Below are positions 3,582 to 49,789 of a DNA stretch of 64,000 nucleotides, in pieces. Position 1 is the first letter of the stretch; every line of letters begins with the position of its first letter. The DNA comes from Acholeplasmataceae bacterium (GTDB lineage Bacteria; Bacillota_I; Bacilli_A; Acholeplasmatales; Acholeplasmataceae). Position numbers and translations under genes: made by a program. The notes under the pieces are model-generated. The model was not told where the DNA came from, searched no databases, and was given only the letters and a program-made list of their open reading frames with translations. The stretch covers positions 736,001-800,000 of the forward strand of contig OY775910.1 of assembly GCA_963675245.1 (NCBI GenBank), written 5' to 3'.

Positions 3582-5026
3582 GGGTACCGAATAAGTAAAT
3601 CAATGAAAAGCGTATTTTTAGGTGATTCATCTAAGTGCGCTTTTTCATTATGCACTTAACGTGTAATCTTTGTTGTAAAGAAAGAGTATTCTAGATCTAA
3701 ACCTGTTGAAATCACTAAAACCATAAGCTGTTCTTTTAATCACTTTAATAAAGTTATTAATCCCTTCAATGATACCGTTCGTCATCTTTTTACGTGTTTC
3801 AGGATGAAGGTCAAATGATTGAACGATTTCTTGACGCCAATTGATAAATGTTTTCTTAATATCTCTGAATTCTTTGGTGGTTGCGTGTCTGAGTAGATCA
3901 ATGAATTGATTGATAAAAGCCGGTGCCTCTTCATAAGATAATGTTTCTATGCTGGTTTGAAAGAGATCTTTAAGATGAAAAGCTTCTTTTAAATCCGGGT
4001 GAAGATTCGCTGCGATATCATGTATGACATAATCATTGACGTTTTGTTCTAAGAGATGATGGTAGTAATAAGTGTCATTCAAGTCGCTCGGTGACTTCAT
4101 CAAGAGCTTCCAATGCTTCTTCAATATCTTATAGTTAATGGAATCTTCAGTATATGTTTTCATGATACGTATTCTCACGGCGTTGAATGACCAATAGATA
4201 TATCTTAAGAAGTGGAAGGTATCGGCGATGATCCGTGCGTTAGGTAGATAAGCTTTCACGATATTTCGATAAGGTGCCCATAGGTCCATAATGACGTTTT
4301 TGACGTTACTGCGCTCTTCATAAGGGATTTGACTGAAATAGTTCTTTAACCAGTCTGTTCGTCTGTTTCTCATCACGTCTATCACTTTCTTGTTGATAGG
4401 ATCACAGATGACAAAGGCGTATTTGCCATAGCCGAGGTTGCGCTTTTTAAATTCATCAATACTGATCGTTTCAGATAGTTTTAACCTGCTCGGTTGGATG
4501 TGTTTATCGATATGTCTCATCGCTGTTGGCACAGAGACATTCAAACGTTTCGCGATGGCTGTATAGCTTTGTACATATTCAGCCTCTCTTAAGATATGAT
4601 GCTTCGTGACATTTGATATCTTATTGAAACGCTCAACGAACTGATTAGGTTCTGGGAACCGCTTGTGGCAGTGTTTACAGACATACCGTCTTCGTCTGTA
4701 TTTTAAATACACATGATAGCCATTGATCACACCATGTTTAATAACCCTATCTCTATAGTCATGAACTTTAGAGGTGTAACTCCCACAATGAGGACATAAT
4801 TGATAGCCTTGTGTGAATCTTAAATGCACATGCATATCATTGTTGATGGTCTCAATTTGTCTGATTTTTAAGTGCTCGTCTTCAATTCTTAATACTTTCT
4901 TGATATAATTGTCTTGCATAAGTAAACTCCTTATCAAAAGTGTGTGGTTACCTTTATTATAAGATTTACTTATGCTTTTTTATATCCCTTTATAAAATCA
5001 TCCACCCCTAACATAATTATAGAGCC
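3563..5026 (-). mobile_element. Complete ISL3-family insertion sequence (1464 bp)
   Basis: Imperfect 23-bp terminal IRs (GGTTCTCTGTCAAGGATAGGGGT / GGCTCTATAATTATGTTAGGGGT, 15/23) and 8-bp target duplication AAAACAAA at 3555-3562 and 5027-5034. Confidence 0.92.
3648..4919 (-). CDS. ISL3-family transposase
   Basis: CPHCG...RRRRYVCKHC zinc finger, ISIDEF, IMDLW, IADTFH, TNGIIEGINNFIKVIKRTAYGF; AAGGAG RBS before ATG at 4919. Confidence 0.95.
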   Translation of the reverse strand: MQDNYIKKVLRIEDEHLKIRQIETINNDMHVHLRFTQGYQLCPHCGSYTSKVHDYRDRVIKHGVINGYHVYLKYRRRRYVCKHCHKRFPEPNQFVERFNKISNVTKHHILREAEYVQSYTAIAKRLNVSVPTAMRHIDKHIQPSRLKLSETISIDEFKKRNLGYGKYAFVICDPINKKVIDVMRNRRTDWLKNYFSQIPYEERSNVKNVIMDLWAPYRNIVKAYLPNARIIADTFHFLRYIYWSFNAVRIRIMKTYTEDSINYKILKKHWKLLMKSPSDLNDTYYYHHLLEQNVNDYVIHDIAANLHPDLKEAFHLKDLFQTSIETLSYEEAPAFINQFIDLLRHATTKEFRDIKKTFINWRQEIVQSFDLHPETRKKMTNGIIEGINNFIKVIKRTAYGFSDFNRFRSRILFLYNKDYTLSA

Positions 5027-35709: not shown

Positions 35710-35785
35710 GGGAGTTTAGCTCAGTTGGGAGAGCATCTGCCTTACAAGCAGAGGGTCAGCGGTTCGAGCCCGTTAACTCCCACCA
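35710..35785 (+). tRNA. tRNA-Val(TAC)
   Basis: Cloverleaf, CTTACAA loop. Confidence 0.95.
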
Positions 35786-36657: not shown

Positions 36658-36733
36658 GGCTCTGTAGCTCAGTCGGTAGAGCAAAGGACTGAAAATCCTT
36701 GTGTCGGCAGTTCAATTCTGCCCGGAGCCACCA
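36658..36733 (+). tRNA. tRNA-Phe(GAA), anchor (R0) of the cassette array
   Basis: GGCTCTG/CGGAGCC acceptor, AAGGA-CTGAAAA-TCCTT anticodon arm, CCA. Confidence 0.97.
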
Positions 36734-36747
36734 TGGAGACCTTAAAT

Positions 36748-36774
36748 AAGCCATTTATAGTGGCTTTTTCTTTT
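36748..36774 (+). terminator. Terminator of the rRNA/tRNA operon, copied in array repeats
   Basis: AAGCCATT-TAT-AGTGGCTT-TTTCTTTT. Confidence 0.85.
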
Positions 36775-36864
36775 ATAAAACGCTTAAAAGTCAATCATTT
36801 GATTATATATTGTCTAGATTAATTAAACAATGGTATAATAAAAGAAAATTGTTGGTGGGGATTT

Positions 36865-37416
36865 ATGAAAAAAATTCTAATAGTTTTATTGTTTATTTTT
36901 TTGCTAACTGGTTGTGCTAAACAACGAACGGAAAATATTGTTGAAGATTTAAATGAGAGCAGTAATTTTGAATATGGCTTATTAATAGAAGTCACTAGTG
37001 ATATTAAAACTCATTTCAATATTAGTCCCGGTTTTGGAGTATATACACTTTTTGATTCATCCATTGAAATAGATATTCAGCAGGAAAGCATTCTAAGTTA
37101 TATAGATGAATATGAAACAACCACATATGATGTAACAGCATATCCAGATTATTCTGATGGTGGAGAATATATTACAATGATTTGGACGACCGATCCAGAT
37201 GTTCATATTTATGACTTATCTGTAGGTGATTCATATACTGAAGAGGAACTAAGTGAATATATGTTATCTTTAGGATTCACTCGAACAAACGATTCAGAAA
37301 ATATATTTATGTATAATAAAGAGCGATTAAATATTTCGATCTTCGTTGAGAGTAACATCATCACGAAGATGTATGTAAGAGTAGATATTACTAATAGATG
37401 GAATATTCAGTATTAA
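36865..37416 (+). CDS. Cassette 1: hypothetical lipoprotein
   Basis: MKK plus hydrophobic stretch plus LTGC lipobox. Confidence 0.8.
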   Translation: MKKILIVLLFIFLLTGCAKQRTENIVEDLNESSNFEYGLLIEVTSDIKTHFNISPGFGVYTLFDSSIEIDIQQESILSYIDEYETTTYDVTAYPDYSDGGEYITMIWTTDPDVHIYDLSVGDSYTEEELSEYMLSLGFTRTNDSENIFMYNKERLNISIFVESNIITKMYVRVDITNRWNIQY

Positions 37417-37440
37417 TTAATAGAATGAATTAGTAAAAGT

Positions 37441-37538
37441 TGCTTGAAACGACTGAAAATCCTTGTGTCGGCAGTTCAATTCTGCCCGGAGCCACCATGG
37501 AGACCTTAAATAAGCCATTGATAGTGGCTTTTTCTTTT
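37441..37538 (+). repeat. R1: full repeat (TGCTTGAAAC, tRNA-Phe 3' half, terminator)
   Basis: Identical to 36687 onward through CCA and GGAGACCTTAAATAAGCCATT; one change in terminator loop. Confidence 0.97.
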
Positions 37539-37633
37539 GTATATGGGGAAGCTTGTCCTTGTATTAACCAAGTATTGTCCTCATTTGAAACTAATGCTAT
37601 AATTAAATTAATTAACACATGGGGGTAGAATTG

Positions 37634-38110
37634 ATGAAAAAAATAATTTTAATTTTTTTTGCAACATTCGTAGTTTTATTTATGTCAGCATGTAAACCAT
37701 ATACATATAACGGAAAAGAAATCGAGTCATTAAAATTCGTTGATATTGATTATTTTGGAGACTATAGACATGAATCAATCATTGATCTACAAAATGGAGA
37801 AGTACTCCACAGACAGTACTCGCCTGAAATCCCAACCCCAGATTATGAAATAGATTTTACATTTGATACTTCCGAAGTTGATTCTTTTTTGGATGAGTTT
37901 GGTTCATCAGGCATATTCAATTTAAAAGAAGAATATCATACAATCTATCATGTTGATGATGGTGGCGGATGGATATTTACAATTTATTATTCAGATGGAA
38001 CCGAAAAAACATCTACAGGAGATAATTATTGGTTAACGAAAGTTTTTGAAAAAGCAGGAACAGCGACTATCAATTTATACGGAGATAATTTATTTGATCC
38101 AGTACACTAG
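37634..38110 (+). CDS. Cassette 2: hypothetical lipoprotein
   Basis: MKK...MSAC lipobox; DDGGGW...Y.DG..K...GDN segment. Confidence 0.8.
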   Translation: MKKIILIFFATFVVLFMSACKPYTYNGKEIESLKFVDIDYFGDYRHESIIDLQNGEVLHRQYSPEIPTPDYEIDFTFDTSEVDSFLDEFGSSGIFNLKEEYHTIYHVDDGGGWIFTIYYSDGTEKTSTGDNYWLTKVFEKAGTATINLYGDNLFDPVH

Positions 38111-38127
38111 TCGATATATAGTTTGGC

Positions 38128-38224
38128 AGTATGAAACGACTGAAAATTCTTGTGTCAGCGGTTCAATTCTGCCCGGAGCCACCATGGAGACCTTAAATAA
38201 GCCATTTATGATGGCTATTTCTTA
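38128..38224 (+). repeat. R2: full repeat with several substitutions
   Basis: AGTATGAAACGACTGAAAATTCTTGTGTCAGCGGTTCAATTCTGCCCGGAGCCACCA...AAGCCATT..ATGGCT. Confidence 0.95.
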
Positions 38225-38268
38225 TTGAAGATGATATAATCAAAATATGATTTCAGGGGGTTACACTT

Positions 38269-38811
38269 ATGAAGAAGACTATTATATTTTTCATGATGAT
38301 ATTAATTTGTGTATTACTTTATTCTTGTAATGGATATAATAATTTAATGTATGATCACTTGAGTGATTTGAATAATTATATATCAGTTACGGGAACGATA
38401 GAAAATATAGTATTTTTTGATGCAGATTGGAATGAATTGAATTGGGATTTATCTGATGATGATATTCCGGATTTATATGAACACTTATGCATATATATCA
38501 AGTTTTACTCTGAAGATGACTATCTGCAATTCACAGGAACATCAAATATTCCCGAAAATTTTGAGTATCAGTCAGTATCTATAATGTTTGATATGATTAA
38601 AACAAATATTGAAATATTAAACGAGAATAGCTTTTTTAAAGAATCGATGATTGATGAAGAAGTTTCAATAGTTACTTCAAATTGGATATATATGGATACA
38701 AATTTTTTTCAAATAGTTGGGCTGAGCTTTGAGGAGATTTCCTACCTTGATCCAGAAGAAGGGTTAAATAATTATAGTACTTATATGGAAGACAATAGTT
38801 CATTGTTTTAG
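38269..38811 (+). CDS. Cassette 3: hypothetical acidic lipoprotein
   Basis: MKK...LYSC lipobox. Confidence 0.75.
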   Translation: MKKTIIFFMMILICVLLYSCNGYNNLMYDHLSDLNNYISVTGTIENIVFFDADWNELNWDLSDDDIPDLYEHLCIYIKFYSEDDYLQFTGTSNIPENFEYQSVSIMFDMIKTNIEILNENSFFKESMIDEEVSIVTSNWIYMDTNFFQIVGLSFEEISYLDPEEGLNNYSTYMEDNSSLF

Positions 38812-38821
38812 AAAGAAAGGG

Positions 38822-38919
38822 TACGTGTAACGACTGAAAATCCTTGTGTCGGCAGTTCAATTCTGCCCTGAGCAACCACGGAGACCTTAAATAAGCCATT
38901 TGTGATGGCTTATTCTTTT
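38822..38919 (+). repeat. R3: full repeat
   Basis: TACGTGTAACGACTGAAAATCC...CCCTGAGCAACCACGGAGACC...terminator. Confidence 0.95.
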
Positions 38920-39008
38920 GTAAATTCAGTAAAAGTCCTTTTGCTTACTACGTTTTGTCGAAAACTAAATAGTAATGATATAATTAAAGAAAACTTTTTG
39001 GGGATCAC

Positions 39009-39512
39009 ATGAAAATAGAATATTTTATGATTGAACTTAAAGACATTTTAAAATCCTATTACTGTATATGGTATTTTTCTGAAAATAGCGAAAAGGATTT
39101 TTTAGTTAAAAGCAACAATAAGATTGCCGTATTTGATTATATTGAATCTGTAATTTTATATGCAAGTGTGAATAATATTGGATTATTGGATGAAAAACAG
39201 CATGCAATATACGATTTAAATTATATTCAAGATTTAGTTAATGGAAAAACATCTCACATTGATTGTAGCGATATACTTGATTTTTGGAATATAGTTGATG
39301 CAATATGTAATACACTGAATATTGTTTTCATTGGATTGGAACATAGATTTGATAAACTGTATGATAAATTATTCAGAGGATGTAATACAATATTAAATAA
39401 AGAAATATACACACCTCAATGGAGTAAAAGCGAAATTAATCAGATAAAAAAGTTATTGACAGAATTCCTATTGATTATTAGCAATGTGTTAAAAGGTGCA
39501 CGAAACGACTGA
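39009..39512 (+). CDS. Cassette 4: hypothetical protein, stop codon lies inside R4
   Basis: GGGG RBS; ORF ends ...GARND-TGA within GACTGA. Confidence 0.75.
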   Translation: MKIEYFMIELKDILKSYYCIWYFSENSEKDFLVKSNNKIAVFDYIESVILYASVNNIGLLDEKQHAIYDLNYIQDLVNGKTSHIDCSDILDFWNIVDAICNTLNIVFIGLEHRFDKLYDKLFRGCNTILNKEIYTPQWSKSEINQIKKLLTEFLLIISNVLKGARND

Positions 39513-39594
39513 AATTCCTTGTGTCGGCAGTTCAATTCTGCCCGGAGCAACCACGGAGATCTTAAATAAGCCATTGATAGTGGCTTTTTCTTTT
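39497..39594 (+). repeat. R4: full repeat
   Basis: TGCACGAAACGACTGAAATTCC...GAGCAACCACGGAGATC...terminator. Confidence 0.95.
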
Positions 39595-39682
39595 GGAGAA
39601 TCATCAATAATCCCTTTGTCAACAATGCCTTGTCTAATTTTCATGAATAATATATAATTAAATAAAAAAGTGGGGAGTATAT

Positions 39683-39988
39683 ATGACACCAGAGATGGAA
39701 AAACTTTACAACAGTCTTAGTACGGTTAAAGTTAAAAATGTTGCACAAGCATATGATTATTTAGGTAACGAAGTAAATGGGCTTGATATGGATCATAAAT
39801 TGTCGTTTGAGATGACTCTAGAAGCTTTAAAGAACGTCAATAAAGATTATAAATTATTAAAAAAATATTATAAAGGTAAAATCGATACTAATCTTGAAAG
39901 TGTTTATACTAAGTATCCAGAAGATTCAGAAGAATATTTCTTTTTAAAGTGCTTAATTAGATTGACTGAATATAATGTCACGAGATAG
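39683..39988 (+). CDS. Cassette 5: hypothetical protein
   Basis: GGGGAG RBS, fills the interval between repeats. Confidence 0.75.
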   Translation: MTPEMEKLYNSLSTVKVKNVAQAYDYLGNEVNGLDMDHKLSFEMTLEALKNVNKDYKLLKKYYKGKIDTNLESVYTKYPEDSEEYFFLKCLIRLTEYNVTR

Positions 39989-40003
39989 AGGGTTTGACAT
40001 TTG

Positions 40004-40026
40004 TGTATGAAACGACTGAAAATCTT
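40004..40026 (+). repeat. R5: truncated repeat (core only)
   Basis: TGTATGAAACGACTGAAAATCTT. Confidence 0.9.
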
Positions 40027-40055
40027 TATATTTACTCGTAAAAGGGGAAGTTAAA

Positions 40056-40370
40056 ATGATATTGTCTGAAAAAACAGATTTAAGTTTCTTTCACGACTCA
40101 AGAGTTGGTGAGATTAATTATAATTATGCGAGCAAATCTTTAATTTTTCACTTGTGTTTAGATAGTTCATCATCAATTAGAAGAGAAGTTGAACTCAAAG
40201 CTAACATTGTTTTTTCTGTAGAATTAAATTCGATAGAGCCTTGGGGACCAGGAATATACATAAATGAGGTCACATTAGAAGATAAAATAGAATTTAAAAG
40301 GCTATCAATAATAATAAATTCAGGAGATATATTTGTTATTGATGCAAATTTATTTGAAATAATTATTTAA
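40056..40370 (+). CDS. Cassette 6: hypothetical protein
   Basis: AAGGGG RBS; FHDS...SGD.F.I.A pattern reminiscent of small immunity-type proteins. Confidence 0.7.
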   Translation: MILSEKTDLSFFHDSRVGEINYNYASKSLIFHLCLDSSSSIRREVELKANIVFSVELNSIEPWGPGIYINEVTLEDKIEFKRLSIIINSGDIFVIDANLFEIII

Positions 40371-40372
40371 CA

Positions 40373-40400
40373 TGCATGAAACGACTGAAAATCCTTGTGT
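40373..40400 (+). repeat. R6: truncated repeat
   Basis: TGCATGAAACGACTGAAAATCCTTGTGT running into TATAAT. Confidence 0.92.
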
Positions 40401-40455
40401 TATAATTATATAATTTAATAACAGGAACAAAAAACTAAGTAAGGAAGAAAATGTC

Positions 40456-40854
40456 ATGAAAACATTAAAGGATATTGAAATTAAGGATTTCAATGAAAGT
40501 AATCTCATTAGATTTAAAAATATAAATATTGATGAAGATACCGAAGTTTACAATGTCACCATGCATGTTTTTGTTAAGAATAATTTTCTACAATGCATAT
40601 CAGAATCATTGACTTTTCATTCTAAAGAACTGTTAACATTTTTTGATAACTGCAAAGACATTTATGATAAATTGACCGGAAACACAACTATTGAATCGAT
40701 AGAAAACAAAAAATGTATATTGACATTGAAAGCAATAAGCAAAGGATATATTGAAATATCTGGAACAATAGAGCAATTAATTGGTTCAAACAAGTGCGAA
40801 TTTACTCTACTTTTTGATCAAACATGTCTCAAGGATAAATTTAACATATCATAG
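40456..40854 (+). CDS. Cassette 7: possible WapI-like immunity protein
   Basis: L.G...IES.E...L.L.....GYIEISG.I...N..EF....DQT.L pattern, recognised from memory. Confidence 0.5.
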   Translation: MKTLKDIEIKDFNESNLIRFKNINIDEDTEVYNVTMHVFVKNNFLQCISESLTFHSKELLTFFDNCKDIYDKLTGNTTIESIENKKCILTLKAISKGYIEISGTIEQLIGSNKCEFTLLFDQTCLKDKFNIS

Positions 40855-40885
40855 AATTCTCAAATTATTATATTAGTGAAGTTGT

Positions 40886-40980
40886 TGCAGGAAACGACTG
40901 AAAATCCTTGTGTCGACAGTTCAATTCTGCCTGGAGCCACCATGGAGACCTTAAATAAGCCATTCAATATGGCTTTTTTT
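40886..40980 (+). repeat. R7: full repeat
   Basis: TGCAGGAAACGACTGAAAATCCTTGTGTCGACAGTTCAATTCTGCCTGGAGCCACCA...terminator. Confidence 0.95.
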
Positions 40981-41032
40981 ATTTCACTTTGATATAATTT
41001 AGTTAAGTAAATACGCAATTGGGGAGAAAAAT

Positions 41033-41455
41033 ATGATTAAATTCAGTTTTGTTAAATCAATCAAAAATGATTATGCTTTATTTGGTTCTGCAATAGTAGT
41101 AATACTGTTAATACCCTTTGTAGTTTATAATATTGTAAAAGGTGAATTTAATGCTGTATATGTTTTTGGATCAATAGATTTGTGCTTTATATTTTTATTT
41201 TTATGGCGGTTACTTGTAATCAAATCATATTTTAATGATTCTATAGAATTAGAAGGAACAATAACTAAAATTTGGTTTTATAAAGATAGAGGAAGAGTGG
41301 AATTTTACTATAAAATCGAAACCCGTGAATTTGGAAAGGGACATGCAATAATGAAGACAAAAGCTACTTTAGCATTAAATAAAGGCCAAAAAGTCAAACT
41401 ACTAATTAAAAATAGAAATCACCAGAAAGCAATTATTGCTGACTTGTATTCGTAG
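41033..41455 (+). CDS. Cassette 8: two-TM membrane protein (DUF3592-like)
   Basis: Two TM helices, then G.IT...RVEFYY...GQKV.L....N. Confidence 0.65.
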   Translation: MIKFSFVKSIKNDYALFGSAIVVILLIPFVVYNIVKGEFNAVYVFGSIDLCFIFLFLWRLLVIKSYFNDSIELEGTITKIWFYKDRGRVEFYYKIETREFGKGHAIMKTKATLALNKGQKVKLLIKNRNHQKAIIADLYS

Positions 41456-41478
41456 AAACATACAATATTTTATTTATG

Positions 41479-41500
41479 AGTATTAAACGGCAGAAAATTC
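41479..41500 (+). repeat. R7b: decayed core-only repeat
   Basis: TTAAACGGCAGAAAATTC vs TGAAACGACTGAAAATCC, 14/18, sitting between two ORFs. Confidence 0.55.
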
Positions 41501-41530
41501 AGTATTTTTGTGGAGAAACCAAATAGAATA

Positions 41531-41824
41531 ATGCAAAAGACTGATTATCGAAAAGAATTGCTTATTGAATTTTCTTTCCTTGATATTGACAAAAAAAGAG
41601 ATTATTCCTTATACAGACCTCATCTTGTTGTACAAGGAGATTCAGAATATTTAGGTATAGCGTTTTATGCTGATACCATAAAAAAAGAAGGAAATAAATA
41701 TACAGCAAGAATTCATTGCATATATGAAGGTGTAAATTATAATAAACTACTCTCAAATGTTTTATTTGAAATAAGGGAGGGACCCATTATTTTAGCTAAA
41801 GGAAGGGTATTGAAGGAATTATAA
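41531..41824 (+). CDS. Cassette 9: hypothetical protein resembling EF-Tu domain III (start may be GTG 41510)
   Basis: YRPHLVV...FEIREG..ILAKGRV resembles EF-Tu C-terminal YRPQF...FAIREGGRTVGAG. Confidence 0.6.
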   Translation: MQKTDYRKELLIEFSFLDIDKKRDYSLYRPHLVVQGDSEYLGIAFYADTIKKEGNKYTARIHCIYEGVNYNKLLSNVLFEIREGPIILAKGRVLKEL

Positions 41825-41840
41825 TCTAACGTCACCGGTT

Positions 41841-41927
41841 TGTATGAAACGACTGAAAATCCTTGTGTCGGCAGTTCAATTAACCAAGGAGACCTAAAAT
41901 AAGCCATTCTATGTGGCTTTTTCTTTT
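41841..41927 (+). repeat. R8: repeat with net 11-bp internal deletion
   Basis: GTTCAATT-AACCAA-GGAGACC replaces GTTCAATT-CTGCCCGGAGCCACCAT-GGAGACC. Confidence 0.93.
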
Positions 41928-42016
41928 ATATAAAGGGAGATTGTCGTTCTATCGATTGTATCTTGTTCAACTTTAATGAATAGTGTTATAATTAAAGAAA
42001 ATATTGGAGGGCCAAT

Positions 42017-42325
42017 ATGAACAAATATGTTAAGGGTTTAACATTTGAAAACATTATTGGTAAGTTAATTTTGGTTGGTATTACATACGAAAACAAAAAC
42101 GGTGATGTGTTGAGTTATAGACAATTTCATGGACGAGTTATACAAGCAGATTCAATTAAAGGTATAACAATTAAAAACGAAAGTAATCAAACATATAATT
42201 TACCACCAGATTTAAATTATTTTATAGTTGCTAAACCAGGTGAATATCGAGAAAAAGAATCGGGGATAGTCATTAGTGATCCAGATTATATCACCCAATG
42301 GATTTCAACACAATCAGACACATAA
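42017..42325 (+). CDS. Cassette 10: conserved hypothetical protein
   Basis: GGAGG RBS; GK.ILVGITY...QFHG...LPPD...A.PGEYR...DPDY...W. Confidence 0.8.
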   Translation: MNKYVKGLTFENIIGKLILVGITYENKNGDVLSYRQFHGRVIQADSIKGITIKNESNQTYNLPPDLNYFIVAKPGEYREKESGIVISDPDYITQWISTQSDT

Positions 42326-42361
42326 TTATTACTCATTGTATTATAATAACTTTATGAATAG

Positions 42362-42455
42362 AGTTTGAAACGACTGAAAATCCTTGTGTCGGCAGTTCAA
42401 TTCTGCCCGGAACCACCATGGAGAACTTAAATAAGCCATTTCGATGGCTTTTTTT
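42362..42455 (+). repeat. R9: full repeat
   Basis: AGTTTGAAACGACTGAAAATCC...CCCGGAACCACCATGGAGAAC...AAGCCATTTCGATGGCTT. Confidence 0.95.
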
Positions 42456-42709
42456 ATGACTGATTAGGGATGATTCTTGTCATGACTCACACTTGTTATC
42501 ATGAATAGATTAGTGCTATAATAATAGTTAATTGGTAATCGATAACTTAAACATATTTATCACAAGCAAAAGTGAATCATAATAATAAGAGTTATTGTTT
42601 CATTTCAACTCAATATAGACACGCATGTATAACTTCAGGGGACAGCATGGACATGGTGTTTTTTATTTAAGGATTTCATCCATATATGATAAGAACGGAA
42701 GGAGAACAT

Positions 42710-45700
42710 ATGAAAGGATCAAAACTATTCAATAGGGGGTTTTCTCTAAAACTACTCATGTTTTTAACGATGTGTTGTTTGATGTTACTTGTATCACCAA
42801 TTATTATTGTTGCTACTAAAAGTACACTAGTCACATCTTTTACCAGCAATTATAATGACCAAAATGAAGTCTATCAAGCGGCTAATGCATTTAACGAAGC
42901 GCTTGTTGAAGAAGGAATTGTGCTTCTAAAAAACGAGAATCAAGCATTACCGTTAGCTGCTGGATCTAAAGTTAATGTTCTGGGTAAGAATTCTCATGAT
43001 ATCGATCTTGGAAACACAACCATAGGTTCAATAAATTATGATGAAGCATTCATATCACCAATGACGTTATATGAGAGTCTGGAAGCAGTTGGTTATATAC
43101 TTAATCCTGACCTAATATCTTTCTACGAAAATGATAATTTATCAGGTACTGGTAGACATGTGTCAAATCTTGGCATATGGCCAGTACCAATCTCAATTGG
43201 TGAAACACCTCAAGAAAACTACTCACAAAGCCTATTAAGTACTTATGCTGATTATTCGGATGCATCTATTGTTGTATTCACCAGAATAGGTGGTATAGGG
43301 TTTGATTTGCCAACCACCATGACAGATGCTTTGGGTGATCCAGATGTCGGATCAGAAGAAGGAGACCATTACCTTGAGTTAAATTTGAATGAAGAGGCGT
43401 TATTATTATCACTCGAAAGTGATCCTAGCGTTAGTAAGGTCATTGTGATCATCAATGCTAGTCAACCGATGGAACTTGGCTTTTTAAACGATTCTGAGAC
43501 GTATTCTAAAATTAAAGCTGCGCTTTGGGTTGGAGGACCAGGAGTATCTGGTGTATCTGCCATTGGTCGTGTATTGGTTGGTGATATTAATCCATCAGGA
43601 CATCTTGTAGATACGTATATAACAGATTTTAAAACCGATCCAACATGGTTTAATTTAGTGAATCGTGAAAATAAAAACAGATATGGCATGATGATTGATG
43701 ATATGTTCACAGAAACGAATGTCAGTTTTGTCGATTATGAAGAGGGAATTTATGGTGGTTATCGTTATTGGGAAACTGCGGGTTTTGACGCCAATGACAA
43801 CTGGAGTTGGTATGACAATCATGTTGTCTATCCATTTGGTTATGGATTGAGTTATTCGACATTTAATTGGGAACTTGTTGGTTCACCTATTTTTCCAGAA
43901 ACACTCACAGTTGATTCAAGCATTTCAATAACCATTAGGGTTACGAATACTAGCAGTGTACCGGGCAAGGACGTTGTTCAACTATACTATACACCACCTT
44001 ATTATGATGGTGGTATTGAAAAATCATATATCAGGTTGGCTGATTTTGAAAAAACACCGTTGTTAAATCCTTCAGAATCAGCAGATATTACATTGACAGT
44101 TTCATTAAAGGATCTCGCATCATATGATTATCAGGATGCGAACAACGATGGATTTATAGGGTATGAACTTGAGGCGGGTAGTTATATCTTTAATGTCTTA
44201 CAAAATGCGAATATCCGTTCAACAAATGGTGTTTCAGATATGACCTTAGTCGTACCAGTGGCACCAGGAAATGGTGCAACTTCAGGACAGACTGGACTTC
44301 ATTTTGCCTATGATGAAGTCACGGGACACGAGATTGAAAATCTATTTAATGATGTATCACAAAAAGCGCTTAATGGACAGTTGGATAATCTTAACACACA
44401 AGCAGTTAAGGATAGCGGCGGTGTGATGCATGTGATGAGTCGTGCTACGGCTAAAGGAGGGCTATCTGGAACCATACCAATAGAATACCCAAGTGATGCT
44501 GATCGAACTATCACACAAACGTTTATTGATAACGGAAATATACCAGTAGATACCACATCACGTAATGTCGCAGATATCACACAACCATGGTATCAGACAA
44601 CATATCCAATTCAAGCTGAAAGTGAAACGGGCACTGTATCCGTTTTACTAAAAGATTTGATTGGTTTAGATTATAATGATCCACTATGGGAAACATTTAT
44701 GAATCAAATGACCTATCAAGAAATGGCGACATTAATTGGTGATGGTACATTCCATACGATACCGATATCAAGGTTAGGTAAGCCATGGTCCATTGAACTT
44801 AGTGGGACAACTGGCTTGATTCCAAGACAAGAGACGACGACGTTAGAATCTATGAATGAGGCAATTGCATGTGTTTATGCAACACAACCCGTTGTAGCGG
44901 CTACTTGGAATAAATCGTTGGTTTATGATTTCGGTGAAATGGTTGGTGAAGAATCTATTTGGGGTAATACTGAATTTGCTTATTCGGGTATTTATGCTCC
45001 AGGATTAAATATCCATCGATCACCATTTTCAGGACGCAACTTTGAATATTATAGTGAAGACGCTGTTCTATCAGCTAAGATTGCTAAAGCATTTTCGTCT
45101 GGTGCTTACTCAAAAGGACTTAGTACAATTATGAATCATCTTGTCTTAAATGAGCAAGAAACAAATCGAGAAGGACTCACTTCATGGGTGGATGAACAAA
45201 CATTGCGTGAAATATATTTATACCCATTTGAAAAAGTAATAAAAAATGGACAAACACATGGCGCGATGGTTTCTTATAGTAAGATTGGTAATACATGGAC
45301 CAGTACGAGTTATGCATTACTCACAGAACTTTTGAAAGATGAATGGGGATATGAAGGCATGATCATGACGGATTGGGTGACATATTCATCCAAAATGGAA
45401 TGGATGATTCGTGCAGGTGTTGATCTATTATTAACCGGAAATGAACCGGCGGTTTTAAATTATGAAGGTGAGGATTTAACGGCCACTCAAGCATGGGCAT
45501 TACGTAATGCATCAAAAGATGTTTTGTTCTATGTTGCAAATAGTAATGCTATGATTCCGAGATTATACTATGAAGGTGAATCATCTGAAGTCGAAGATTT
45601 CACAAGAGGAGTAGCGTATACACTTGATGTTTCTGGTGTACAGACAAATTATGAATTAGACACACCATTAAGTGTGACCTATACTGCTGAAGGATTACCT

Positions 45701-47095
45701 AATGAACTACTAATGGATCCTTCGACTGGTATTCTTACTGGCACACTGCCTGTAGCCAATCCTAGCCAGTGGTGGAATACGCCACCAACTTCTTATACAT
45801 TTACAGTAACGGTAACAGTCCCCGAAGGTACAACAATCAATACGTCCATATCAAAGGAATTTACGATTCATCAAGCGAGTATGCAAGAAATATATCTTCT
45901 TGATACAGCTACAGTAGGTGAAACTTATTATTCAGATGCTATTAGAGTTTCATCAAGTATTCCCGTTGATGCTACTGATATTATGTTCGAAATAGATCCC
46001 GGATTAGCGCTTTATAATTTGGTTGTCAGAGAACCATCTCAACCATTACCAGATGGTTTGGTTATGAATCCGGATGGTACGATTACCGGCATACCAACAA
46101 CACCAAGTGAACCGGTCGATATTACGGTTCAAGTGACTGCACCTGGATTTGTTACCACATATATTACAAGAACCATATCTGTGCGACCTGCAGATCCAAA
46201 AATCGTAATGAATAATGTGATATTACCTAAAGCTGAAGTCAATCAAACATATCAAGCAATTTTTGTAGCAACCGGTAGCGATGAGATTACTTTCACATCA
46301 GATGAAATACCTATAGGTTTAGCTCTAAATCCAAACGGCACACTTTCTGGCACCCCTGAAGAAGTAGGAACACACATGTTTCATGTAACAGCATCTGCAA
46401 TCGATATGGTTCCAGTTTCCGCTGTTGTCGTTCTTGTTGTCTACGACACCATCGAAATTTCTAGTTTAACATTCCAAGATAAGTTACTAGAATCTGGACA
46501 AGTTGGTATATCATATAACGCTTTATTATCTGCTAGTGGTGCTGACGATATTGTCTTTACATCACATGATTTGCCACCTGGAATCACATTAAATGATAAC
46601 GGAACTCTAACAGGAATTCCAACAGAGGCTGGTGTGTATTTATTTCACGTAACAGCAACCGCGTCAGGTATGCCATCGAGTGAGGCTATCATGTGCCTTA
46701 GCATTACTGAAACAGAGATCATTTTACCTGTAATTACATTAAACCACATTGAATTAGACGCTGGTGAAGTTGGGTCAGCATATAGTGCAACAATTACAGC
46801 AAGTGGTGCAACAAATATCATATTCTCTACAGAAGATCAGTTACCAACAGGGTTGACTTTATCAACAGATGGCATACTTTCAGGTACACCAACCGATGCA
46901 GGCACATATATATTTAAAGTGACAGCATCAGCTGATGGAACAACAGAAGCTACTGCATTTATTGCCATTCAAATCAATCCAATCGTAGCATCATCAACGG
47001 GTTGTGGGTCAACAATAAATATGTCGGCTGCAATCGTGTCTTTTATGTTAATTATGATAGCTTGTGCCTACTTAGTAAGTAGGAAAACATACTAA
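42710..47095 (+). CDS. Cassette 11: secreted, membrane-anchored GH3 beta-glucosidase-like protein with He_PIG-type Ig repeats
   Basis: Signal peptide, EEGIVLLKN, NPSGHLVDT, YPFGYGLSY, GKDVVQLY, GRNFEYYSED, MTDW nucleophile, repeated LP.GL.L..GT.SGTP, C-terminal TM; GGAG RBS before ATG 42710. Confidence 0.9.
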   Translation: MKGSKLFNRGFSLKLLMFLTMCCLMLLVSPIIIVATKSTLVTSFTSNYNDQNEVYQAANAFNEALVEEGIVLLKNENQALPLAAGSKVNVLGKNSHDIDLGNTTIGSINYDEAFISPMTLYESLEAVGYILNPDLISFYENDNLSGTGRHVSNLGIWPVPISIGETPQENYSQSLLSTYADYSDASIVVFTRIGGIGFDLPTTMTDALGDPDVGSEEGDHYLELNLNEEALLLSLESDPSVSKVIVIINASQPMELGFLNDSETYSKIKAALWVGGPGVSGVSAIGRVLVGDINPSGHLVDTYITDFKTDPTWFNLVNRENKNRYGMMIDDMFTETNVSFVDYEEGIYGGYRYWETAGFDANDNWSWYDNHVVYPFGYGLSYSTFNWELVGSPIFPETLTVDSSISITIRVTNTSSVPGKDVVQLYYTPPYYDGGIEKSYIRLADFEKTPLLNPSESADITLTVSLKDLASYDYQDANNDGFIGYELEAGSYIFNVLQNANIRSTNGVSDMTLVVPVAPGNGATSGQTGLHFAYDEVTGHEIENLFNDVSQKALNGQLDNLNTQAVKDSGGVMHVMSRATAKGGLSGTIPIEYPSDADRTITQTFIDNGNIPVDTTSRNVADITQPWYQTTYPIQAESETGTVSVLLKDLIGLDYNDPLWETFMNQMTYQEMATLIGDGTFHTIPISRLGKPWSIELSGTTGLIPRQETTTLESMNEAIACVYATQPVVAATWNKSLVYDFGEMVGEESIWGNTEFAYSGIYAPGLNIHRSPFSGRNFEYYSEDAVLSAKIAKAFSSGAYSKGLSTIMNHLVLNEQETNREGLTSWVDEQTLREIYLYPFEKVIKNGQTHGAMVSYSKIGNTWTSTSYALLTELLKDEWGYEGMIMTDWVTYSSKMEWMIRAGVDLLLTGNEPAVLNYEGEDLTATQAWALRNASKDVLFYVANSNAMIPRLYYEGESSEVEDFTRGVAYTLDVSGVQTNYELDTPLSVTYTAEGLPNELLMDPSTGILTGTLPVANPSQWWNTPPTSYTFTVTVTVPEGTTINTSISKEFTIHQASMQEIYLLDTATVGETYYSDAIRVSSSIPVDATDIMFEIDPGLALYNLVVREPSQPLPDGLVMNPDGTITGIPTTPSEPVDITVQVTAPGFVTTYITRTISVRPADPKIVMNNVILPKAEVNQTYQAIFVATGSDEITFTSDEIPIGLALNPNGTLSGTPEEVGTHMFHVTASAIDMVPVSAVVVLVVYDTIEISSLTFQDKLLESGQVGISYNALLSASGADDIVFTSHDLPPGITLNDNGTLTGIPTEAGVYLFHVTATASGMPSSEAIMCLSITETEIILPVITLNHIELDAGEVGSAYSATITASGATNIIFSTEDQLPTGLTLSTDGILSGTPTDAGTYIFKVTASADGTTEATAFIAIQINPIVASSTGCGSTINMSAAIVSFMLIMIACAYLVSRKTY

Positions 47096-47192
47096 AATCA
47101 TAAAAAAGAAGACTACATGGAAGTTGATTTGTCATAAAAGATAGTGCTATCAATTTTCTTATAGATAGTTTAATCTTTACCAGATACATCTA

Positions 47193-47285
47193 GGTAGAGA
47201 AAAAAATCCTTGTGTCGGCTGTTCAATTTCGCCTAGAGCCACCACGGAAATCTTGAATAAGCCATTTGAAATGGCTTTTTCTTTT
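47193..47285 (+). repeat. R10: degenerate repeat lacking the GACTG core
   Basis: AAAATCCTTGTGTCGGCTGTTCAATTTCGCCTAGAGCCACCACGGAAATCTTGAATAAGCCATTTGAAATGGCTTTTT. Confidence 0.9.
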
Positions 47286-47325
47286 GTGTGTTATACTCAA
47301 ACTATAACCAATAAAGGGTGATTAT

Positions 47326-47877
47326 ATGTCTTTATATAATAAACATTATCAAAAACAAAATTATTTTGGTGAACCATATCCTGAGTTACTCGAATATTTT
47401 AATAAACTTGATAGAGAATTAACTGTGTTGGATTTAGGATGTGGTCAAGGTCGAGATGTTTTAGGTATTGGAAAAATGGGGTTTAGTGTTGTCGGTATTG
47501 ATCTATCAGAAGTAGGGATTAATCAACTTAATCAGTATGCTAAAAATGAAAATCTAAATGTCAAAGGAATTGTTTGTGATTTGGACAGATTTGATCAAGT
47601 GAGTGAGTTTGATATTGTGTTATTAGATTCCATGTTTCACTTTTATAAAAATGACATTGATATTGAAACGGCAAGATTGCATCGAATATTGAATAGCATA
47701 AAACCAAATGGTATTGTTATAATTGTTTTACAAGAAAATAAGTTTAGAATTAATTACTTAAAAAGTATCATATTAAGTGATTTATATCATTTTGTTATTG
47801 ATGTAGAAGAGCATCTGATTTACAAAGAAGTAAATAGTAAGTTTTATATGATTTCTGTTCAAAAAATCAACTATTAG
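47326..47877 (+). CDS. Cassette 12: class I SAM-dependent methyltransferase (TehB-like)
   Basis: VLDLGCGQGRD, VVGIDLS, FDIV, KPNG. Confidence 0.9.
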   Translation: MSLYNKHYQKQNYFGEPYPELLEYFNKLDRELTVLDLGCGQGRDVLGIGKMGFSVVGIDLSEVGINQLNQYAKNENLNVKGIVCDLDRFDQVSEFDIVLLDSMFHFYKNDIDIETARLHRILNSIKPNGIVIIVLQENKFRINYLKSIILSDLYHFVIDVEEHLIYKEVNSKFYMISVQKINY

Positions 47878-47953
47878 TATAAAATTACTAAATTTTCATG
47901 TGTTCGAAATTCAAGAATATAAAGCTTCAGTGTAGAAGCTTTAAAAAAGCCAT
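47877..47953 (+). repeat. R11: highly decayed repeat
   Basis: 47877-47914 aligns ungapped 26/38 with GTATGAAACGACTG...GTTCAA; CTTTAAAAAAGCCAT follows. Confidence 0.55.
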
Positions 47954-47991
47954 GCTATAATAAATTTACTTAGTTATTATAAGGAGAATAT

Positions 47992-48285
47992 ATGAAAAAA
48001 GCTGTCTTGATATTAACGATTATCGATTGGCTGATCTTAGGGTTTTTACTTTATTTTGCTGGTTCAATCATTGTAACTGTTGCTAATAACAATGATGGTT
48101 GGGCAACACTTGCTTTAGCCGTTGTATCCTTATATTCATTTTTTGGTATGATTATCTTATGTATCCCAATGGTTATACTTGTGAAGAAATTGACTTTAAA
48201 AGAAACGAAAATATATTTCTATTCAACACTAGGTAATGTATTATTAACGGTAATCATGTTCTCGATCGCTTTGCTATTTTCATAA
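47992..48285 (+). CDS. Small three-TM membrane protein
   Basis: AAGGAG RBS, TGCTATAAT upstream, hydrophobic. Confidence 0.75.
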   Translation: MKKAVLILTIIDWLILGFLLYFAGSIIVTVANNNDGWATLALAVVSLYSFFGMIILCIPMVILVKKLTLKETKIYFYSTLGNVLLTVIMFSIALLFS

Positions 48286-48314
48286 ACACGATATTTAAAA
48301 TGATTCATACATCA

Positions 48315-48341
48315 CTTAAAAAAGCCACTCATGTGGCTTTT
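48315..48341 (+). terminator. Array-type terminator remnant (R12)
   Basis: CTTAAAAAAGCCACTCATGTGGCTTTT resembles CTTAAATAAGCCATT...GTGGCTTTT. Confidence 0.65.
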
Positions 48342-48474
48342 AGTCTGTAATTTTTGAATAAAACTATAAATTAAAGTGGTGTTATAATCTATTCTTTTTT
48401 AAAATGAAAATGTAAAGATGTCGTAGTATAATGAGAGTATCTAGTGGTCGCGATGATAAAAGGAGAATATAATT

Positions 48475-48915
48475 ATGAGTCAAGGTATAAAACATTTTCG
48501 AAAATTTGATTTTTCAGGGATTAAATTTATTTGTTTTCTAGCAATTGAATTAATCATTATTGTGGGTGGCACGATTTATTTGACAATTATTTCTGAAAAT
48601 ATGACACTTGCCTTAATTGTACTTGTGTTTTCTTTTCTGATTGCAATTGTTATAACAATGTTGGGGTTGTTTTTAACCACGATAACAAGGATTAATCTGT
48701 CATATATAGTGATTCATATTGCTCTAGCATACCCGGTCATCCGTGCATGGCTGGATATGATACAAGAAGAAGACTGGTTGCAAGTACTTGTTGATTTTTT
48801 GGTGCTATCACCCATGTTAGGTGGCTTGCTGCTGAGTTTACCATTGATACTAGTTTTTAGAAAAAAAACTGCAGCAAAACAAACAGTTAGTAAAATTGAA
48901 GAAATAGACAATTAA
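48475..48915 (+). CDS. Four-TM membrane protein
   Basis: AAGGAG RBS, hydrophobic helices. Confidence 0.75.
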   Translation: MSQGIKHFRKFDFSGIKFICFLAIELIIIVGGTIYLTIISENMTLALIVLVFSFLIAIVITMLGLFLTTITRINLSYIVIHIALAYPVIRAWLDMIQEEDWLQVLVDFLVLSPMLGGLLLSLPLILVFRKKTAAKQTVSKIEEIDN

Positions 48916-48937
48916 GCCACGCTTTGTGGCTTTTTTT
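48913..48937 (+). terminator. Array-type terminator remnant (R13)
   Basis: TAAGCCAC-GCTTT-GTGGCTTTTTTT. Confidence 0.65.
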
Positions 48938-49039
48938 GAATCATAAGATGTGATTTTTGCAATTAATCTTTTAAATATGGCATTTATTAGACATTTTTGA
49001 TATCCTTAATTTAGACACAAACGTCCATGGAGGGGTCAT

Positions 49040-49390
49040 ATGTTTCAAGTTATTGTGGATGTATTATCAAGCGATTTAATATATAACATTTTAGAGGCGT
49101 TGTTGATATTTAATGTCATTTTAGTTTATGTTACGTACATCGATATGCAAATCAATGACCGTATTTTTATTATTAAACTCATCTTTAAAAAACGACAATT
49201 TGATTGGAAAAAAATGAATCAAAAATTTAATATATTACTCATTCTAATGATTGTAACAACCTTTTTTATACCGTTTTTATTGATGATATTTTATGATATA
49301 AGAGCGCTAATGTCTGTCGTTGTAATCGGGTATTTCGCGAGTATAATCTTATATAGTCTATATATTGTAAAATCATCAACTGTATTATAA
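49040..49390 (+). CDS. Hypothetical membrane protein
   Basis: GGAGG RBS, three hydrophobic segments. Confidence 0.7.
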   Translation: MFQVIVDVLSSDLIYNILEALLIFNVILVYVTYIDMQINDRIFIIKLIFKKRQFDWKKMNQKFNILLILMIVTTFFIPFLLMIFYDIRALMSVVVIGYFASIILYSLYIVKSSTVL

Positions 49391-49405
49391 GAAGAGGAGA
49401 TTATT

Positions 49406-49789
49406 ATGCCACATCTAATATATATTATGGGTGCCTATTTGTTTTATATAATATCGATTATGGTTCATGTGTTAGTCATTAATAAAAAAATTGATTACAC
49501 ACAAATCAATGGTGGAAGAAGCGAATCTTTTGAAGCACAATATAAAATATCGATTGTTAGCATCGTTATTTTAGTAATCGGTTTTGTTATCATTATCGTA
49601 TATAATGTTTACCCACCAATCACGAAGACATACTTTAGTGTCATTTTAATGGGGTTGATGTCGTTATATTGGTTATTAGGTTTTGTGATGCAATTATTAG
49701 GTACTTCATTTGAAAGAACATATTTAACACCGGTTCTATTGCTAGGATTTGTGTCGCATGTGATGTTATTGATTGAGTACTTTATGTAA
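49406..49789 (+). CDS. Hypothetical four-TM membrane protein
   Basis: GAGGAG RBS; INGGR and QLLGT.FER motifs. Confidence 0.75.
   Translation: MPHLIYIMGAYLFYIISIMVHVLVINKKIDYTQINGGRSESFEAQYKISIVSIVILVIGFVIIIVYNVYPPITKTYFSVILMGLMSLYWLLGFVMQLLGTSFERTYLTPVLLLGFVSHVMLLIEYFM

Follow-up and report, generated by a model that had tools for sequence, protein, structure and literature searches.

An array of integrase-less single-gene cassettes at tRNA-Phe in an Acholeplasmataceae chromosome, probably assembled and shuffled by a site-specific recombinase acting in trans

The 64-kb window analyzed here is part of the complete, 1,626,300-bp chromosome of an Acholeplasmataceae bacterium (the genome under study, G000; other G numbers denote related genomes, and L numbers denote metagenome or genome loci). 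On the + strand, from position 36658 to 49405 of the window, it carries an array of short, mostly single-gene units, called cassettes below, that starts at a gene for tRNA-Phe(GAA). This gene (36658-36733, +, found with ARAGORN) is intact, closes a run of 11 consecutive tRNA genes that begins with tRNA-Val at 35710 and forms the end of an rRNA-tRNA operon, and is the only tRNA-Phe gene among the 42 tRNA genes of the genome. It is the primary attachment site of the array; the identity of the displaced copies with tRNA-Phe begins at GACTGAAAATCC, in the anticodon loop, which contains the crossover region (36687-36698).

The repeated block consists of GACTGAAAATCC, the T arm, the acceptor stem, CCA, a 14-nt spacer, and a hairpin terminator, and it recurs 9 to 10 times in direct orientation. 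Direct-repeat families place the cores of these blocks at 37451, 38138, 38832, 39507, 40896, 41851, and 42372; at 40014 and 40383, only the core is retained and the remainder of the block is gone, 11 nt of the T arm are deleted from the copy at 41851, and a degenerate core at 41489 (AAACGGCAGAAAATTC) and a degenerate full copy near 47198 complete the series. Both strands of the chromosome were searched for the repeat: the exact 12-mer GACTGAAAATCC occurs in 7 copies within 5.7 kb and nowhere else in the genome, and all eight genome matches to the 19-nt spacer motif (at most 2 mismatches) are at the array locus. An earlier note on this DNA, made from the letters of the window, had described the tRNA-Phe 3' half, spacer, and terminator as direct repeats, and both the repeat families and the genome-wide searches bear this out. 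A terminator scan called 18 sites, as against 4.6 ± 2.3 in shuffled sequences, and 10 of these 18 are the + strand repeat hairpin AAGCCATT..GGCTTTTT. In order, the displaced copies match the tRNA 3' half at 49, 46, 46, 46, 47, 36, 48, and 38 of 49 positions. The guanine-plus-cytosine content of the proximal array (29.3% vs 33.9% for the genome) is within the lowest 3.6% of windows.

Each interval between cores holds one co-oriented open reading frame (ORF) of 101 to 183 amino acids (aa), except for a 1469-aa surface protein and the tail past 47198. The ORFs stop 34, 27, 20, 25, 12, 41, and 46 nt before the next core, and one stops inside the core; the claim that there is one co-oriented ORF per interval, ending shortly before the core, is therefore sound. 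When 14 heads from G000 and the related G006 were aligned, about 97 nt, comprising the tRNA 3' half, the spacer, and the terminator, proved almost invariant; they are followed by a looser stretch with a promoter-like element (TTGTC...TGnTATAAT) and a G-rich ribosome-binding site (RBS). At the right end of the units, a motif near TGCATGAAAC, which is not of tRNA origin, abuts the core. The earlier note had written this unit end as TGYATGAAAC, a form that is exact at three of nine junctions (40014, 40383, and 41851) and has one to three mismatches at the rest, while ATGAAAC|GACTG is exact at 40014, 40383, 41851, and 38138.

All the units of the window lie on the + strand. Cassette 1 (36687-37450) comprises the tRNA 3' half, a terminator (36748-36766), a promoter-like element (36810-36839), a gene for a 183-aa lipoprotein (36865-37416), and the right arm TTGCTTGAAAC. 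Cassette 2 (37451-38137), with a full head that matches the tRNA 3' half at 49 of 49 positions, and cassette 3 (38138-38831; head 46/49) carry lipoprotein-like genes (37619-38110 and 38269-38811, respectively). The gene of cassette 4 (38832-39506; head 46/49), for which the look-alikes in the Atlas are unnamed clusters, occupies 39009-39512, running through the right arm and stopping at the TGA of the next core (39495-39512); across all arrays, an open frame of at least 60 codons ends on the core TGA at only three junctions. Cassette 5 (39507-40013; head 46/49; gene 39683-39988, 101 aa) corresponds to the first cassette of G006. Cassettes 6 (40014-40382) and 7 (40383-40895) are headless; the former is made up of the core, an RBS, and a gene (40056-40370), and the latter has a gene (40456-40854) for a WapI-family immunity-like protein (a sub-threshold Pfam match to WapI at E = 1.5e-4; in the Atlas, a score of 0.94 and 18 of 30 matches from WapI clusters), which is the only immunity-like one of the ten cassette proteins between 36865 and 42325. 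Cassette 8 (40896-41488; head 47/49) has a membrane-protein gene (41033-41455) and is followed by the degenerate core at 41489, behind which lies cassette 9 (41489-41850; gene 41510-41824). Cassette 10 (41851-42371), the head of which has the 11-nt T-arm deletion, carries a gene at 42017-42325; a small ORF in the array of G120 resembles it at the N-terminus, a likeness judged by eye and unscored. Unit 11 (42372-47197; head 48/49) has a long leader and the gene for the 1469-aa surface protein (42686-47095), with GH3 and He_PIG Ig domains. Unit 12 (47198-47990) starts with a degenerate tRNA-Phe copy (38/49), followed by a terminator (47259-47277) and a gene for an S-adenosylmethionine methyltransferase (47326-47877) that is 57% identical in aa sequence to a cassette gene in L154. 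Among the 14 proteins of the window and 7 of G006, only this methyltransferase had a significant NCBIfam match, and it was also the one protein of the 21 to be matched by PADLOC.

The distal tail (47991-49405, +) contains small membrane-protein genes (47992-48285, 48475-48915, and 49040-49390) and repeat-type hairpins, with no cores, and conserved synteny picks up again at 49406. Several weaker remnants of the repeat had been proposed in this region and upstream of it: 41489 is plausible as a degenerate core, 48913 corresponds to a repeat-type terminator hairpin and 48315 to one like it that went uncalled in the scan, while 47886 is a marginal case. The left flank of the distal full copy (47187-47296) looks like a tRNA D arm (GGTAGAG) where the TGCATGAAAC arm would be expected, and it lacks about 7 nt before the loop; this copy may be a relic of another type of element or of a duplicated tRNA. 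As regards the assembly, a short-read contig from the source sample covers 39566-40962, that is, it runs across both headless units, and the order of the headed cassettes is one that the short contigs of this sample cannot confirm.

The same junction recurs widely in metagenomes, in which the exact 22-nt junction was found in 119 stretches, corresponding to 86 non-redundant loci. The consensus built from 207 unique displaced sites is TGCATGAAAC|GACTGAAAATCCATgtgTc, with conservation that falls away past about +19, and the smallest common site is about 29 bp long (a 10-nt non-tRNA arm plus the tRNA-Phe-derived core). In a census of 141 core-to-core units, a T arm is recognizable in just 35 to 45 (the stricter of the two tests undercounts). 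Since most cassettes are without a T arm, the minimal site is about 29 bp, and not the repeat of about 95 bp that the earlier note had taken as the site of the unit; similarly, its definition of the unit as tRNA half, terminator, promoter, and gene fits the headed units but neither the two headless units of the window nor most of those in the census. Half of the metagenome loci (43/86) have at least two junctions, with a maximum of 11, and all 213 junctions are co-oriented within their own locus, with a median spacing of 736 bp (10th-90th percentile 405-1849 bp, n = 127). In the seven loci that contain tRNA genes, the array always follows a cluster-closing tRNA-Phe. The longest ORF is co-oriented in 128 of the 141 cassettes, exactly one + ORF of at least 50 aa is present in 98, and the median ORF coverage is 71%.

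Eight congeners keep the flanks of the locus: upstream, the rRNA-tRNA operon, and downstream, a DegV-like gene and the genes for ribosomal proteins. The stretch behind tRNA-Phe varies, with 12.7 kb in G000, about 5 kb and five cassettes (displaced copies) in G006, and about 1.2 kb, free of cassettes, in G005, a close relative. A scan of 307 genomes of the order with the junction pattern (at most 2 mismatches) gave matches in 36 genomes, as compared with 3 for the reversed pattern used as a control. Co-located arrays were found in G000 and G006 (genus g1) and in G116, G120, G142, and, more weakly, G139 and G141 (genus g5), that is, in seven species representatives from two Acholeplasmataceae genera, and always after tRNA-Phe where the boundary is visible. 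In a groundwater run (X6), a contig apparently joins 36734 (the end of tRNA-Phe) to 51965 (the DegV-like gene), with a side of 30 nt and letters between that are not known; this weakly suggests a relative with an empty site. Contig joints with a side of at most 30 or an undefined middle (e.g., 36705>40373, 38405>40513, and 36034>49275) were judged unreliable.

The arrays of L283, L284, and L077 mix the TGCATGAAAC type with a second flavor of junction, TGCAGTTTTG|GACTGAAAATCC, the two alternating within one array (e.g., at L284:2315); the searches were seeded with the TGCATGAAAC type. The exact junction had no match in the viral collection; six viral contigs do carry a tRNA-Phe-type attP, but they belong to other taxa and lack the TGCATGAAAC arm. 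In records from SAR86, Chlamydiae, Bacteroidota, and Verrucomicrobia (including L057, L072, L060/L061, L027, and L029), tRNA-Phe is followed by displaced 3' halves 0.1-2 kb off, some of them in tandem, with a conserved left arm particular to each group. Outside the Acholeplasmataceae, short units anchored at tRNA-Phe may be common.

The cassettes behave as independent units. Eighteen pairs of homologous cargo genes (at least 50% aa identity, on different contigs) allowed 36 neighbor comparisons, of which 20 were not evaluable, and in all of the 16 that were, the neighbors are unrelated. Positions 740-1466 of L151 and 2231-2957 of L187 are 98.5% identical over 727 nt, and positions 2059-2322 of L151 and 1992-2255 of L187 are 100% identical over 264 nt, in both cases from core to core; these two near-identical cassettes are in the order A-B in L187 and B-X-A in L151. 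A single cassette is common, again from core to core, to L153 and L232 (97%) and to L141 and L144 (88%). Between G000 and G006, cassette 5 and the first cassette of G006 are 92.1% identical in nucleotides (477/518) and 94% in aa, with homology that ends at the next core, as against 78.5-82.8% for the adjacent core genes of the same genome pair and 90% for the ribosomal protein block. A cassette from a genus-g5 array (L285/L202) matches the gene and right arm of cassette 1 at 80.3% over 613 nt, the similarity beginning at the start codon and reaching into the next core. In a groundwater run, a 515-nt contig corresponding to 40407-40921 represents cassette 7 alone, with 5 differences (99%) and with near-empty neighboring bins; the DegV-region contig of this run differs at 19 of 129 positions (about 85% identical). 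In the source-sample contigs, every cassette is at chromosomal depth, run X1 is without extra depth for any cassette, and run X4 is the same strain at a depth of about 3.

As to what the cassettes encode, 100 of the 148 distinct cargo ORFs of the metagenome arrays are without a Pfam family at E ≤ 1e-3. The remainder include six GNAT acetyltransferases, four Fic proteins, two HNH nucleases, two methyltransferases, a barnase-type ribonuclease, DMP19, YccF, surface proteins with Big_14 and leucine-rich repeats, and a major facilitator superfamily transporter. No match to a recombinase family was found among the 148 metagenome cargo ORFs or among the window cassettes.

Nor does the window encode a tyrosine recombinase (PF00589), as the earlier note had stated; all six of those of the genome are at least 190 kb away, no serine recombinase was found in the genome, and the copy of the ISL3-family transposase gene in the window (about 3687-4466), one of five in the genome, is unrelated to the array. 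A recombinase of the expected kind is found instead on separate small elements. In the L204 element, tRNA-Phe and a terminator are followed by the gene for a tyrosine integrase of 288 aa (PF00589); next come a rolling-circle replication protein (Rep) of the REP_ORF2-G2P type, an XRE regulator, and an ORF of 75 aa. The right end of the element is TGCATGAAAC|GACTGAAAATCC, the junction of the arrays. Relatives of its integrase, 35-69% identical, are present in six species representatives: the integrase adjoins tRNA-Phe in G123, G020, G191, and G194, and in G132, tRNA-Phe and a displaced half flank the 6.2-kb element that contains it, the left arm being different. The tRNA-Phe integrase elements are 2.8-6.2 kb long, with a rolling-circle Rep in two of the three examined, and in G123, a cargo gene lies between the head and the integrase. 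The element at tRNA-Phe in G123 (L251:652-3312), a metagenome-assembled genome from the Acholeplasmataceae, encodes a CRESS-type Rep with Viral_Rep and S3 helicase domains beside the tyrosine integrase, an unusual pairing for such a Rep. In a tree of 37 small integrases, those of the L204 type form a clade (support 100/99) in which seven of the eight rows are tied to tRNA-Phe, and the sister clades adjoin tRNA-Arg, Gln, Lys, Cys, Gly, or Glu. The idea of a recombinase acting in trans, also put forward in the earlier note, is thus supported by a tRNA-Phe clade of integrases, absent from G000, whose members ride on small elements of their own with the array junction at the end.

PF00589 matches number 5 in G006, 2 in G116, 7 in G120, and 3 in G142. 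No relative of the L204 integrase was found in the viral collection, and the Rep families PF23343 and PF02407 were not found in G000, the blank for PF02407 being weak in that its control matched nowhere. Two integrases of G000, R993 and R128, were considered as trans helpers and rejected, for they are 27-32% identical to the L204 integrase, belong to another clade, and lie inside their own tRNA-Gln and tRNA-Lys islands. The former is in a 4.8-kb element (G000:C1:990416-995299) between a displaced tRNA-Gln fragment and tRNA-Gln, together with a phage-replisome-organizer-like gene. The latter is in a region (G000:C1:121853-151809) where tRNA-Lys is followed by five displaced 45-nt 3' fragments, four of them at 100% identity, which delimit tandem units of 17, 4.6, 3.1, 2.6, and 2.3 kb; the first of these carries R128 and restriction-modification-like genes. 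In a third region (G000:C1:311102-312724), two displaced fragments, each running from the anticodon loop to the 3' end and including the terminator, lie behind a minus-strand tRNA-Arg at a spacing of about 0.7-0.85 kb. Both precede one co-oriented gene (166 aa and 222 aa), which is the same single-gene layout at a second tRNA.

The anatomy of the arrays and their distribution, the cassette-precise homology and permutation, and the association of an integrase clade with tRNA-Phe are matters of observation. The explanation that we consider probable is that the locus is an accretion array of integrase-less mini-elements at tRNA-Phe, which a site-specific recombinase supplied in trans would have assembled and reshuffled. 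Each unit would be delimited by an attachment (att) site of about 29 bp, in which the right arm TGCATGAAAC abuts the core GACTGAAAATCC(A/T)TGTGTC. Dedicated small tyrosine integrases would cross over in the anticodon loop of tRNA-Phe and both create and recombine these sites. The head would bring back the tRNA 3' half, the terminator, and the promoter, such that insertion at the tRNA would regenerate an essential gene and the cargo would be insulated against read-through from the rRNA operon. Recombination between two cores would excise or delete one or several cassettes, and the released circle would re-enter by recombining with the tRNA or an internal core, resulting in an integron-like gain, loss, and reshuffling of single genes. 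We infer that an integrase of this clade acts on the cassette cores, that the cassettes circularize, and that their cargo is adaptive.

The serial insertion at tRNA-Phe that the earlier note had envisaged agrees with units that are att-bounded and assort independently, but the headless cassettes cannot each have entered at the tRNA alone: because tRNA-Phe is single-copy, a headless unit inserted there would destroy an essential gene. The headless cassettes must therefore have entered at internal cores or within multi-cassette units; a headed unit could land in the tRNA, and a headless one would need either a headed companion or an internal core as its point of entry. The source of the integrase would be small integrase-plus-Rep replicons, which genomes with arrays usually do not carry. 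As G000 is without an integrase of the clade, any recombinase must act in trans, and its array would be a passive store until a helper element arrives.

Several observations weigh against this explanation. At E ≤ 1e-25, no integrase of the L204 clade was found in G000, G006, G116, G120, or G142; metagenome-assembled genomes (MAGs) are often without mobile elements. Given that G000 and its relatives are without the cognate integrase, the arrays may be frozen. A tyrosine recombinase, of the tRNA-targeting clade, is present in just one of the 86 metagenome loci, L204 itself. No circles, excision junctions, or polymorphisms were found in the source-sample contigs, which cannot show rare forms, and the permuted orders come from short-read metagenome contigs that are possibly chimeric at repeats. 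Part of the conservation at positions within the searched motif is a product of the search itself. The decay of the displaced copies from proximal to distal is weak and not monotonic. Finally, with the second flavor of junction (TGCAGTTTTG|GACTG) and the different left arm of the G132 element, a single integrase may not serve all sites.

Another possibility is that each unit is the last gene of a separate integrase-bearing element that integrated serially and was then eroded in place by deletion, and that it was never mobile as a cassette. Full integrase-bearing elements of 2.8-6.2 kb are indeed known at the tRNA-Phe of relatives, the cargo of G123 is placed between head and integrase such that a deletion would leave a cassette-like remnant, the integrase is missing from G000, and the distal copies are degenerate; moreover, a review of integrative and mobilizable elements (PMC5704250) lays out such a route to cis-mobilizable elements (CIMEs). 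However, we consider erosion unlikely, as it leaves unexplained the core-to-core homology with none of 16 neighbors in common, the A-B vs B-X-A order at 98.5-100% identity, the uniform one-gene format (141 cassettes, median spacing 736 bp), and the fact that cassettes are closer between genomes than flanking core genes are. Its deletion step has a place of its own, in that the layout of G123 makes an origin of the array units by deletion plausible.

Recombination of a different kind could also be envisaged. The heads of 97-175 nt might serve as portable homology for transformation and RecA or for unequal crossing-over, with no site-specific recombinase, and the length of the heads and their likeness (85-100%) in G000 and G006, along with the absence of the cognate integrase from both genomes, would suit this. 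It is nonetheless very unlikely: elsewhere, most cassettes have just the core of about 29 bp in common, the 10-nt non-tRNA arm is kept across genera, the junctions are strictly co-oriented, the same junction terminates an integrase-bearing element (L204), and the breakpoints are at cores even in headless cassettes. Alternatively, the 29-bp junction could be a dif-like site and the units dif modules of the kind reportedly moved by XerC/XerD in Acinetobacter plasmids. The length of the site suits an 11+7+11 layout, and in some MAGs with arrays, the Xer-like recombinases number only two (2 PF00589 matches in G116, at 81% completeness). This is the least probable of the explanations, and we reject it on sequence, for the likely dif of the genome (position 1,494,095, next to the XerD-like gene and the GC-skew maximum) is unlike the junction, which is tRNA-derived and tied to a tRNA-targeting integrase clade.

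Integrons are the textbook platform for stockpiling and reshuffling single genes and are largely confined to Gram-negative lineages. The arrays at tRNA-Phe resemble them, sedentary chromosomal integrons above all, in being long and co-oriented, with mostly single-ORF units that have no assigned function, a recombination site after each, shuffling at the level of the cassette, and a presumed tyrosine-recombinase engine. They differ in that there is no IntI beside the array and no attI, the recombinase being on a separate small replicon, in that the site, as read from its sequence, is a tRNA-derived duplex-type core of about 29 bp without an extended palindrome as opposed to a folded attC, and in that many cassettes have their own promoter and terminator. 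The closest formal category may be sought among the CIMEs, known from accretion at the attachment sites of integrative and conjugative or mobilizable elements (ICE/IME) in streptococci. According to the review cited above (PMC5704250), they keep attL and attR, have lost the integration genes, can line up one behind another where a tRNA gene ends (3'), and can be mobilized as a whole by the integrase of a neighbor. The array units fit this definition, since they are att-bounded, lack integration and transfer genes, and have a junction of the type found at the right end of L204. However, the CIME tandems described there are few, kb-scale, and derived from conjugative elements, whereas the arrays reach at least 11 units, which are mostly single genes of about 0.7 kb; in addition, the 29-bp core is often their sole common sequence, and the helpers carry a rolling-circle Rep, with no conjugation genes seen in the available loci.

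Comparable features have been reported in other systems. The tycheposon islands of Prochlorococcus (10.1101/2020.12.28.424599) grow proximal to the tRNA by repeated tyrosine-recombinase integration, which scatters partial tRNAs and leaves cargo behind; as described there, they are integrase-bearing and kb-scale, with mostly unclear island boundaries, whereas the array genes are nearly all individually att-bounded. The host phylum also differs, as does the replication module, which in the helpers is a Rep of the G2P type or the CRESS type (HUH Rep) and in tycheposons, by definition, is of a primase/helicase type. In Bacteroidales, rAID-1 combines a non-IntI tyrosine recombinase with arrays of small genes, repetitive intergenic sequences reminiscent of integrons, and immunity cargo (10.1101/471110); there, the XerD-like recombinase is in cis at the 5' end and the array has no tRNA anchor, whereas the present array is without a recombinase and has only cassette 7 as an immunity-like gene. 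The Islander survey (PMC4383910) requires an integrase for each island and gives size peaks of 13.6 and 39.9 kb, with tandems of at least three in just 4 cases among 3,919 islands. The array shares with its islands a regenerated tDNA, a displaced 3' fragment, direct orientation, and an anticodon-centered crossover; with about 10 units of less than 1 kb and no integrase, it would be filtered out by that pipeline as described. Our literature searches, the coverage of which did not extend to subscription journals, found no description of such arrays.

A wider interpretation, which we put forward tentatively as one that could well be wrong, is that the integron principle was invented independently here, with the tRNA-Phe loop as the primary site, 29-bp cores as secondary sites, an integrase in trans, a shared gene pool, and an extension to other tRNAs. 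Single-gene cassettes would circularize and be re-inserted by the tRNA-Phe-specific integrase of transient, plasmid- or ssDNA-virus-like integrase-plus-Rep replicons. The pool (immunity proteins, lipoproteins, acetyltransferases, Fic proteins, and nucleases) would move horizontally among Acholeplasmataceae genera in lakes, groundwater, and the sea, and the same integrase family would make like arrays elsewhere, such as the two-cassette tRNA-Arg and five-unit tRNA-Lys arrays of G000.

These arrays have several consequences. Island finders that demand an integrase per island drop such arrays, which are therefore a blind spot. The junction allows the flexible gene pool of uncultured Acholeplasmataceae to be read directly from metagenomes, and the system offers a defined 29-bp site along with a candidate 288-aa integrase. 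If the proposed explanation is true, integron logic would have arisen from an ordinary tRNA-targeting integrase in wall-less relatives of the Bacillota, which have genomes of 1-2 Mb and otherwise few routes of gene exchange.

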